NCBI GenBank assembly: GCA_044348875.1
Contig: JBIKSA010000005.1
Coordinates: 112-64,111 of the forward strand
Length of the DNA: 64,000 bases
Origin: Erythrobacter sp.
GTDB taxonomy: Bacteria > Pseudomonadota > Alphaproteobacteria > Sphingomonadales > Sphingomonadaceae
Direction: 5' to 3'
Shown: positions 1,992 through 3,988 of the stretch, in pieces
How the letters are laid out: every line of letters starts with the position of its first letter
Position numbering within the stretch: position 1 is the stretch's first letter
Notes under the pieces: model-generated
The model's input: only the letters and a program-made list of their open reading frames with translations
Databases searched by the model: none
What the model was told of the DNA's origin: nothing
Position numbers and translations under genes: made by a program

Positions 1992-2528
1992 ATGGCTCGC
2001 TGGTATATCATCCACGCTTACTCCGGTTTCGAGAACAAGGTGCGCGATGCAATTATCTCGGAGGCCGATCGCCTCGGCCTTTCCGAAGGTGTCGAAGAAG
2101 TGCAGGTTCCGACCGAGACCGTGACGGAAGTGAAGCGCGGTAAAAAGGTGCAGGTCGAACGCAAGTTCATGCCCGGCTATGTCCTCGCCAAGCTGAACAT
2201 GACCGATGATATCTATCACCTCGTCAAGAACACCCCGAAAGTGACCGGCTTCTTGGGTTCGGGCAATAAGCCGCAAGCGATTTCGGAACGCGAAGCCTCG
2301 CGTTACTTCGGCGGCGTGGCTCAGGCCCAGGCAACCCCGAAGCGCGAAATCAGCGTGGATTACGAAATCGGGGATTCGGTCAAGGTGCTGGATGGCCCGT
2401 TCGCCAGCTTCAACGGGATCGTCGAAGAACTCGATTTCGACAAGGCCAAGGTCAAGGTTTCGGTGTCGATCTTCGGCCGCGCAACGCCCGTGGAGCTCGA
2501 TTTCGAACACGTGGAACTGTCGAAGTAA
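1992..2528 (+). CDS. nusG: Transcription termination/antitermination factor NusG
   Basis: RWYIIHAYSGFENKV, FMPGYVL, KOW VKVLDGPFASFNG, VSIFGRATPVEL. Confidence 0.99.
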   Translation: MARWYIIHAYSGFENKVRDAIISEADRLGLSEGVEEVQVPTETVTEVKRGKKVQVERKFMPGYVLAKLNMTDDIYHLVKNTPKVTGFLGSGNKPQAISEREASRYFGGVAQAQATPKREISVDYEIGDSVKVLDGPFASFNGIVEELDFDKAKVKVSVSIFGRATPVELDFEHVELSK

Positions 2529-2701
2529 GAACCCGTCTCGGCATCTGCCAGCGCAAGCGCCGCTTCGCTTCCCGCGAGGAAGCTGATGCGGTCGCCTTGC
2601 GGGCCGATGTGACCCTTCGCACTTACAAGTGCGCGCTGTGCGGCCAGTTTCATCTTACCAGCCGCACCAAGGGGCTTCGCCAGCCGCGCAGTTTCGGTTG
2701 A
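2525..2701 (+). pseudogene. Small C3H zinc-finger-like ORF (58 codons) lacking a canonical start; pseudogene or non-canonically initiated
   Basis: Manual translation VRTRLGICQRKRRFASREEADAVALRADVTLRTYKCALCGQFHLTSRTKGLRQPRSFG-stop; first codon GTA overlaps the nusG stop; not in ORF track. Confidence 0.65.
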
Positions 2702-2760
2702 TTTCGGACACGCCTGCGCCTATGCGCCCCCCTTCGCTGGCCCCCGGCCAGTGATTCCGT

Positions 2761-2802
2761 GCGGGAGCCTCTGCAATGCACGAAGCAGAGGCGTTTGACC
2801 GC
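2761..2802 (+). promoter_or_regulatory. rplK 5' leader hairpin (candidate L1 autoregulatory element)
   Basis: GCGG/CCGC and CCTCTGC/GCAGAGG stems flanking an internal loop; GGAGCCTCT...AGAGGCGTT resembles the enterobacterial rplK leader as recalled; TTGATT-N17-TATGCG at 2698-2726 upstream. Confidence 0.5.
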
Positions 2803-2859
2803 TCAACATGAGCCTGCGCTGGAAACAGCCGGGCAACAGTGCGACAGGAGTAAGGCCAC

Positions 2860-3291
2860 ATGGCCAAGAAAATCGAAGGCTATATCAAGCTGCAGGTGCC
2901 CGCCGGCTCTGCAACGCCCTCGCCGCCGATCGGCCCGGCGCTGGGTCAGCGCGGCGTGAACATCATGGAATTCTGCAAGGCGTTCAATGCCGCCACGCAG
3001 GAAATGGAAAAGGGCACGCCGATCCCGACCGTGATCACGGTTTACGGCGACCGTTCCTTCACCTTCATCACCAAGACCCCGCCCGCGTCGTTCTTCCTGA
3101 AGAAGGCGGCTGGCCTGAAGTCGGGCTCGAAGGAGCCCAGCAAGATTTCGGCTGGAACCATCAAGCAGTCGCAGATCCGTGAGATCGCGGAAGCCAAGAT
3201 GGCCGATCTGAACGCGAACGACATTGATCAGGCGATGAAGATCATCGCCGGTAGCGCCCGCTCGATGGGCCTCGAAGTGGTGGAGGGCTAA
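2860..3291 (+). CDS. rplK: 50S ribosomal protein L11
   Basis: [42 protein letters not shown]. Confidence 0.99.
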
Positions 3292-3295
3292 TCCG

Positions 3296-3988
3296 ATGAC
3301 CAAGATCACCAAGAAGGCCAAGGTTCTGGCCGCGCTCGACCGCGAAAAGCTCTACACCGTTGACGAAGCACTCAACGTGCTGCGTCAGTACAAGACCAAG
3401 TTCGACGAAACCGTTGAAGTAGCCATGAACCTCGGCGTCGATCCGCGTCACGCCGACCAGATGGTCCGCGGCATGGTGTCGCTGCCCTCGGGTACCGGCA
3501 AGGATGTTCGCGTGGCCGTGTTCGCCCGTGGCGACAACGCCGAAAAGGCGCTGGCTGCCGGTGCTGACAAGGTTGGCGCGGAAGATCTGCTGGAAGACAT
3601 GCAGAACGGCAACCTCGACTATGACCGCGTGATCGCTTCGCCTGACATGATGGGCGTCGTCGGCCGTCTCGGCAAGGTGCTCGGCCCTAAGGGCCTGATG
3701 CCGAACCCGAAGCTCGGCACGGTTACCCCGAACGTCGCGCAAGCGGTCAAGGACGCCAAAAGCGGCCAGGTCGAATACCGCGTCGAAAAGCAGGGCATCA
3801 TCCACTCCGGCATCGGCAAGCTCAGCTTCTCGGATGACGCGCTGAAGGCGAACTTCAAGGCGCTGACCGAAGCTGTCGTGAAGTCCAAGCCCGCAGGCGC
3901 CAAGGGCAAGTACGTCCGCAAGGTCACCATGACCTCGTCGATGGGCCCGGGTTTGAAGGTTGACCTGAGCGAAGTCGAAGGCGCGTGA
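3296..3988 (+). CDS. rplA: 50S ribosomal protein L1
   Basis: [47 protein letters not shown]. Confidence 0.99.

Follow-up and report, generated by a model that had tools for sequence, protein, structure and literature searches.

Immediately behind nusG in a stretch of Erythrobacter sp. DNA lies an open reading frame (ORF) that almost certainly represents a real, conserved gene and that has no ATG, GTG or TTG with which to begin. The stretch, hereafter the window, comprises 64,000 nucleotides (nt) of contig JBIKSA010000005.1 (assembly GCA_044348875.1), and the ORF, at positions 2525-2701 between nusG and rplK, encodes a basic microprotein of 58 residues. In related genomes the gene has its own start codon and is separated from nusG by a spacer; in the window and in several other lineages of the Erythrobacteraceae both appear to have been deleted, and the frame opens on a GTA that overlaps the nusG stop codon. 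These start-less copies are very probably still expressed and selected. We consider it an even chance that they are translated by ribosomes that terminate on nusG and re-initiate at GUA. The features of the junction and of the ORF are as follows.

1992..2528, + strand: nusG (178 residues; from the ORF list and its translation), stop codon TAA at 2526-2528
2511..2516, + strand: nusG codons Val174-Glu175, GTG GAA, a weak Shine-Dalgarno (SD)-like motif
2523..2529, + strand: junction AAG-TAA-G, comprising the last nusG sense codon, the nusG stop codon and the -1-frame GTA at 2525-2527
2525..2701, + strand: microprotein ORF, 58 codons plus the stop codon TGA at 2699-2701
2543..2548, + strand: Ile7 (ATC, a possible near-cognate start) and Cys8 (TGC, the first candidate zinc ligand)
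2630..2653, + strand: C36-x2-C39-x3-H43 knuckle within Y-K-C-A-L-C-x-x-F-H-L-T-S, with TGC at 2630-2632, TGC at 2639-2641 and CAT at 2651-2653

A preliminary description of the window had proposed a hidden zinc-finger microprotein at this position, and its reading of the letters holds. The translation of 2525-2701 is VRTRLGICQRKRRFASREEADAVALRADVTLRTYKCALCGQFHLTSRTKGLRQPRSFG, followed by the stop codon, as given there; relative to nusG the ORF is in the -1 frame, with an overlap of 4 nt, its first codon GTA being shared with the nusG stop; and the frame is open back to 2270, with ATG, GTG and TTG all absent from that interval. The sole listed in-frame start within the ORF is a TTG at 2597, the use of which would remove Cys8, and the ORF is missing from the ORF track of the window. 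The A at 2527, which had been singled out for checking, is the same letter, with no alternative, in Logan contigs of four independent lake or freshwater metagenomes (X1, X2, X3 and X5). Because the junction letters are identical in these independent assemblies, a sequencing error at 2527 is ruled out as the cause of the missing start.

By itself, an open frame of 58 codons is no strong sign of a gene in GC-rich DNA, and it is homology that raises this one above chance. A protein search returned 245 homologue clusters with E values down to 4e-28, all of 55-82 residues and all labeled "hypothetical", the named sources being Erythrobacter, Porphyrobacter and other Sphingomonadales; coverage was 88-100% among the 120 matches listed. 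A scan using one genome per species gave at least 559 species-level matches, in genera that include Erythrobacter, Porphyrobacter, Novosphingobium, Sphingobium, Sphingopyxis and Sphingomonas. The family is known so far only as hypothetical proteins. In an alignment of 36 sequences (A1), the window copy is 74-93% identical to its 35 relatives, and 23 columns are invariant, including G6, I7, C8, C36, C39 and H43. A count over 42 canonical copies, that is, copies with a start codon of their own, likewise yielded 23 columns conserved at 95% or more, among them I7 and C8 though not G6. The window copy violates none of these and has C8, C36, C39, H43 and the HLTSRTKG motif. The conserved core spans residues 1-55, beyond which the tail is variable. 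At the 80 loci that we retrieved, identity was 58-93% by tblastn, with one copy in the retrieved region of each of the 80 genomes. In keeping with what the preliminary description had expected of a genuine gene, homologues lie downstream of nusG in relatives and the Cys and His codons are under purifying selection.

At the aligned start position the 80 loci have GTG (39), ATG (33), TTG (1), ATC (1) or GTA (5), and in one further locus a TTG stands three codons upstream of it. The lone ATC follows a strong SD; it occurs in a Sphingobium metagenome-assembled genome (MAG; L048:1501-1503), 7 nt behind GGAGGA, and is a second type of non-canonical start in the family. In the Erythrobacteraceae loci the microprotein gene lies downstream of nusG, usually behind a spacer of 13-190 nt (446 and 789 nt in two outliers), and the canonical copies have their own GTG or ATG start. 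To the five GTA loci we added the window, seven metagenome contigs found by a search for the junction pattern, and locus L089, giving 14 GTA-type copies. All 14 have the same architecture, with nusG ending in AAG TAA, the stop codon overlapping the GTA, and the upstream canonical start absent.

Three junction types were found among the GTA-type copies (groups A to C): TAA-G+AACC, with AGA as codon 2, which is the window's group; TAA-G+GACG, with AGG; and TAA+AAACC, with AAA. To judge from their breakpoints, they would be the products of different deletion events. On a neighbor-joining tree of nusG and the ORF (699 nt), the GTA-type loci occupy about six separate positions, with canonical sisters next to each (among the sister pairs are L087/L006, L040/L036 and L014/L004); the spacers of these sisters are homologous. 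The preliminary description had offered, as one option, a fresh pseudogenization by a swap of stop codon, from TGA to TAA, and had proposed inspecting relatives for ATGA or GTGA junctions. That option found no support. Not one such overlap occurs among about 50 Erythrobacteraceae loci, and the relatives have a homologous spacer and a start of their own; we therefore take the GTA state to result, as far as sequence comparison can tell, from deletion of the spacer and start codon and not from a TGA-to-TAA change. Each deletion removed exactly these two elements and kept the frame from codon 2 or 3 onward. As the breakpoints differ and the tree positions are scattered beside canonical sisters, the deletions are regarded as independent. 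Spread of a single GTA allele by recombination could account for the linkage with a synonymous nusG change that is described below, and it was judged the less likely course: the breakpoints differ, and both the NusG tail and the triplet preceding AAG (TCG, GCG or GTC) agree with the local clade. Several independent origins are more likely, to which recombination within group A may have added.

The comparative data argue that the start-less copies are maintained. All 14 are intact, with neither a stop codon nor a frameshift, and show no departure from the 23 conserved columns of canonical copies outside L085, which has the conservative changes R10K and A20V. Among GTA copies with a common breakpoint, the ratio of nonsynonymous to synonymous substitution rates (dN/dS) lies at 0.09-0.37, and dS reaches 1.16. 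When all pairs are taken, GTA-type copies have a median of 0.19 and canonical copies one of 0.25. In a comparison of the window with L089, third positions of the ORF differ by 19% and first and second positions by 3.4%, compared with 14.5% in the adjacent intergenic DNA. Changes in codons 2-6 within GTA groups are mostly synonymous (about six synonymous to one nonsynonymous), T3 being always retained, from which we argue that translation starts at or before codon 2.

It is quite unlikely, in our estimation, that the GTA-type copies are non-functional remnants of recurrent recent deletions in which decay has yet to come. Such remnants would be expected to lack a canonical start, as these copies do, and in none of the 14 has a change of TAA to TGA restored one; very close canonical sisters (L087/L006 and L040/L036) show that some of the events are young, the comparison of the window with L001 has too little power to reveal constraint, and decay does occur in the family. 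An instance of the latter is a canonical copy with a GTG start and a 209-nt spacer (L020:1501-1665) that has an in-frame stop at codon 9, and that is either a pseudogene or a MAG error. Yet the absence of decay in all 14 copies, with the conserved columns in place and dN/dS not raised, makes fresh pseudogenization unlikely, and copies with a common breakpoint have diverged widely (dS 0.3-0.8 in groups A and B). Compared with the adjacent intergenic DNA, first and second positions of the ORF show roughly fourfold stronger conservation between the window and L089. Independent deletions that all stop at codon 2 or 3 in one frame are a further sign of selection, since neutral deletions would not do so, and decay in waiting leaves the association with nusG Val174 unexplained.

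That association is as follows. In nusG, Val174 is encoded by GTG in 14/14 GTA-type loci, whereas the 43 canonical loci have GTC (38), GTG (3) or GTT (2); GTC is also the codon found in the sisters of at least four GTA lineages. The wobble G creates the sequence GGAA, or GGAG in some relatives, ending 8 nt upstream of the GTA. When this G was changed to C in silico, about 3.4 kcal/mol of pairing with the anti-SD was lost in the -17 to -6 window. A role of the codon as a mini-SD is thus suggested by sequence. Two canonical sisters of GTA-type loci, L002 and L006, also have GTG at Val174. The G may precede the deletion of the spacer and permit it.

Taken together, these observations led us to a model of termination-coupled re-initiation. 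Deletion of the ancestral structured spacer and the GTG or ATG start would have left an ORF that opens, in the -1 frame, with the final base of nusG. A ribosome releasing NusG at UAA would then stay on the mRNA and re-initiate with fMet-tRNA, at a low level, on the overlapping weak codon GUA, assisted by the weak SD-like GGAR that Val174 GTG places 8 nt upstream. Several published findings are compatible with such a route. The overlap of 4 nt is the classic geometry of coupled gene pairs (PMC6728339, PMC12548453); SD motifs inside an upstream gene boost re-initiation, and a 4-nt SD located 9 nt upstream increased it more than threefold (PMC2268962). In Escherichia coli GUA is documented as a weak start: with TEM-1 as the reporter, GUA, GUC and GUU initiated at 7-14% of AUG (PMC4032126), and a GUA mutant of recJ was suppressed by mutations in initiation factor 3 (IF3), as related in the papers that cite this work (Haggerty & Lovett 1997, cited in PMC2268962 and PMC4032126). 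The family, moreover, already favors weak starts, as seen from the counts of GTG, TTG and ATC given above.

Other observations weigh against this model. In a systematic study in E. coli, codons that are not near-cognate initiated at 0.01-1% of AUG (10.1101/063800), and GUA differs from AUG at two positions. A change of TAA to TGA, a single A-to-G step that is neutral for nusG and gives a GTGA start, was found in no locus, which implies either that low expression is selected or that the outcome does not hinge on starting at GUA. The SD-like motif is weak, being GGAA in most GTA-type loci, and an unrestricted calculation of the anti-SD duplex did not separate GTA-type from canonical loci, the effect appearing only in the position-restricted version. 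The RNA sequencing runs that share words with the region come from spacer-bearing relatives, and none from a GTA-type organism. The window and L001 differ at 7 positions in 177 nt, against an intergenic divergence of about 7%, and are too similar to reveal constraint. Finally, the count of separate deletions is read from a tree that is short (699 nt) and poorly resolved, and what looks like recurrence could also come from recombination.

The strict -1 relationship between the two frames raises another way of translating the ORF, in which the ribosome slips on reaching the end of nusG. While UAA occupies the A site, the peptidyl-tRNA-Lys would slip from AAG to GAA or CAA, GUA would be read as Val, and a minor fusion of NusG and the zinc finger, of about 236 residues, would result. 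A stop codon that occupies the A site is known to promote slippage in the P site ("shifty stops"). Slippage would make an initiation codon unnecessary and would suit an ORF that lies exactly in the -1 frame and opens on the base with which the final sense codon ends; translation would include codons 1-6, in line with their mostly synonymous variation, and upstream of every GTA-type junction the -1 frame stays open for 24-531 nt. Canonical loci are just as open, however, the median being 315 nt for either class. Neither a slippery heptamer (X_XXY_YYZ) nor A_AAG is present, the window reading CUG_UCG_AAG_UAA; in the 14 loci AAG is preceded by G nine times and by C five times, but by A in none, even though A_AAG could be had through the synonymous codons TCA, GCA or GTA. 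The shiftiness of AAG in E. coli is due to the absence of tRNA-Lys(CUU) from that species; most alphaproteobacteria have this tRNA. Nor was a conserved downstream structure found: RNAalifold applied to 11 GTA-type junctions produced only small hairpins with a covariation term of -0.74, and the z-score of the single-sequence fold was -1.35. Slippage leaves the Val174 GTG association unexplained. The upstream GGAR, about 9 nt before AAG, could in principle act on frameshifting too. We regard slippage at the stop codon as unlikely; if true, a NusG-zinc-finger fusion made in this way would be as novel as re-initiation at GUA. A -1 frameshift further upstream, inside nusG, was discarded, since canonical loci match the GTA-type loci in the openness of the -1 frame, which in one GTA-type locus extends for 24 nt only. 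Of the two options that the preliminary description had left besides pseudogenization, re-initiation at GTA thus appears to fit the comparative data better than -1 frameshifting, in whose favor neither a slippery site, nor additional -1 openness, nor a stimulatory structure at the junctions folded was found.

Initiation might also occur within the ORF, at the near-cognate AUC of Ile7 (2543-2545), to give a protein of 52 residues that retains all four zinc ligands. AUC is a better documented weak start than GUA, at 1-2% of AUG (10.1101/063800); L048 has ATC at the normal start position behind its GGAGGA SD; and in groups A and B the stop region, UAAGAA or UAAGGA, is SD-like and lies 11 nt upstream of the AUC. 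In group C, however, this region is UAAAAA, so that no SD-like motif is available. Codons 2-6, which would be left untranslated, are in frame with 0 indels in the 14 loci, their changes are mostly synonymous, and T3 is always kept. Ile7 is also invariant in canonical copies, and its presence is therefore uninformative. A start at this codon seems to us very unlikely.

Re-initiation at GUA, if it occurs, has partial precedents. In coupled pairs with the -4 overlap ATGA or GTGA (Huber et al. 2019, PMC6728339; reviewed in PMC12548453), as in the window, the first codon overlaps the upstream stop by 4 nt, an independent ribosome-binding region is absent, and an SD-like motif lies inside the 3′ end of the upstream gene. 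In those pairs the overlapping codon is AUG, GUG or UUG; here it is GUA, found as GTAA in the window and 13 relatives, and coupling is proposed from sequence. In the recJ GUG-to-GUA mutant, low-level initiation at GUA depended on IF3 stringency, according to the papers that cite the study (Haggerty & Lovett 1997, cited in PMC2268962 and PMC4032126). GUA cases of the recJ type are laboratory mutations, whereas the GUA described here is natural and evolutionarily maintained in several lineages. The -1 frameshift fusions of dnaX gamma and of phage lambda G/GT resemble the window in having a start-less -1-frame ORF at the 3′ end of the upstream gene; in contrast to them, the nusG junction has no X_XXY_YYZ or A_AAG site, and no conserved stimulatory structure was found at the GTA-type junctions folded. 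A weak non-canonical initiation codon policed by IF3 is also the basis of the autoregulation of infC, through AUU.

The recurrent start-less allele with its GUA overlap and linked synonymous change in nusG would be a new form of translational coupling. In its fullest version our proposal is that several Erythrobacteraceae lineages, apparently independently, turned a free-standing gene into a start-less cistron strictly wired to the translation of NusG through GUA, kept weak on purpose and possibly sensitive to IF3, with a matching synonymous mini-SD change in nusG; we hold this to be possible, at somewhat under even chances. If true, it would provide a natural and evolutionarily maintained GUA as a bacterial initiation or re-initiation codon. 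About six lineages with the same loss of the start, retention of the gene and the same synonymous nusG change amount to a natural replicated experiment on an ORF without AUG, GUG or UUG, and how strict post-termination re-initiation is about its codon, including 30S versus 70S scanning and the part played by IF3, is testable in culturable Erythrobacter. Such strains include Erythrobacter fulvus sf7 (L040) and Erythrobacter sp. NE805 (L019), both of the GTA type, and E. donghaensis DSM 16220 (L045), a canonical sister. There is also a practical consequence: gene finders cannot call the gene in GTA-type genomes, and a conserved protein is thereby systematically under-annotated. The NCBI annotation of L089 (GCA_027533455.1, L089:1501-1686) has the protein begin at an ATT three codons upstream, as MVQVRTRPG...; this ATT is not conserved, the window having ACT there. 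The call shows that the pipeline accepts the ORF by homology but must invent a rare start. Two long gene calls, P0228 and P0254, whose length suggested in-frame NusG fusions, proved to be off-frame, error-ridden calls through nusG and the spacer.

As the preliminary description had noted, the peptide has the spacing C8-x27-C36-x2-C39-x3-H43 and is basic, with 14 Lys or Arg and 4 Asp or Glu residues (net charge of about +10). An AlphaFold2 (AF2) model with a confidence (pLDDT) of 77 consists of two helices and a beta-hairpin bearing the CxxC, with the knuckle residues located on this hairpin (strands E32-35 and E42-45). Residue invariance and the topology of this model make it probable that the three cysteines and the histidine bind zinc. 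A Foldseek search of the PDB gave a best E value of 0.98 and returned neither Spt4 nor a ribosomal protein, and a sequence profile search of the PDB gave only E > 0.5; an Spt4-like or ribosomal-protein fold was accordingly rejected. The model resembles only uncharacterized small phage proteins (models in BFVD), with template modeling (TM) scores of 0.5-0.64, Foldseek probabilities up to 1.0 and E values of about 0.01. Pfam gave best matches of E = 0.04-0.15, under its cut-offs, and NCBIfam none; PADLOC returned no match, which leaves a link to defense systems unsupported. The gene neighborhood, fold and profile searches thus gave no clue to function. From its sequence, the protein is probably a small, basic, zinc-stabilized factor that binds nucleic acid or the ribosome or RNA polymerase.

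The family forms part of a larger group. A profile search of 1.8 billion representative sequences yielded 629 superfamily clusters at E <= 1e-3, and the members inspected are free-standing, N-terminally extended or tandem-repeat proteins with the pattern C-x~27-CxxC-x2-[FWY]H; the C36/C39/H43 knuckle is retained in the distant members inspected. In P0266 (228 residues), P0215, P0218 and P0210 the C...CxxC..H module is repeated in tandem, with two to four copies. P0202 (852 residues, seven matched stretches) has seven repeats of a related unit rich in His and Cys and is apparently secreted or membrane-anchored. Among phage families, PHROGs 3424 and 15216, both uncharacterized, match with hidden Markov model E values of 1e-6 to 1e-4. 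These small phage proteins have in common with it the motif C-x~27-C-x2-C-x2-[FWY]-H-L-T and a similar predicted fold, while the Sphingomonadales proteins differ in being chromosomal, single in each genome of the retrieved loci, and marked by the signature MKTRPGIC...HLTSRTKG. A widespread, uncharacterized superfamily of such microproteins, common to Sphingomonadales chromosomes and many phages, merits biochemical study.

The surroundings of the ORF in the window are those of a cluster of core transcription and translation genes, as follows.

1412-1487: tRNA-Trp
1693-1935: secE, upstream of nusG
2702..2859, + strand: intergenic region from the microprotein stop to rplK, outside the microprotein gene
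2860..3291, + strand: rplK (L11; from the ORF list)
3296-3988, + strand: rplA (L1), after rplK

NusG of the window is 84-100% identical to NusG of the related loci, and in L089 the homologous genes were assigned to Pfam NusG, Ribosomal_L11 and L1. No second copy of the microprotein gene was found within the window. The intergenic region presumably holds the promoter or leader of rplKA; its identity to the window is 93% in L001, 86% in L089 and 70% in L014, and 2702-2859 gave no Rfam match and no match to the sigma-70 consensus.

The preliminary description had linked the microprotein to these core genes. Its position in the secE-nusG/rplKA cluster stands, and a functional tie is unsupported: adjacency to nusG is seen almost only in loci labeled Erythrobacteraceae. 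A different conserved gene (186-210 residues) precedes the microprotein gene in the three Novosphingobium loci inspected, and in the other Sphingomonadales genera inspected it adjoins unrelated genes. The microprotein gene is therefore an independent unit, and its link with nusG is specific to the Erythrobacteraceae. Even there, the tight nusG-ORF-rplK packing of the window is one among several arrangements; in L004, L013, L025, L042, L045 and others, rplK lies 1.1-1.5 kb downstream of the microprotein gene, with at least one extra gene between them.

The long spacers of canonical loci are homologous and adopt a common fold with compensatory changes. The spacer of 127-190 nt is a conserved structured RNA in L002 (1363-1500), L006 (1365-1500), L003 (1337-1500) and 19 other canonical loci (alignment A3), and is not found in the window. 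Its first hairpin, of 9 base pairs, directly follows the nusG stop and has the loop CUCC and five pairs with compensatory changes; a long-range helix is formed by GUCCUCGGCG and CGCCUGCGG, and a second hairpin by GCGGCCUC..GAGGCCG. The spacer contains anti-SD-like runs of CUCC or UCCUC. Rfam had no match at the junction or in the spacer of relatives, and the RNA may be a terminator, an attenuator or a leader. Two MAGs carry a typical Erythrobacteraceae secE-nusG-microprotein-rplK locus under unexpected names: L002 (CALRJK020000014.1) is labeled Synechococcus sp. UW140 and L021 (DAIRTA010000258.1) Hyphomonas sp. Their NusG proteins are 96% and 90% identical, respectively, to that of the window, and the labels probably reflect bin contamination or mislabeling.

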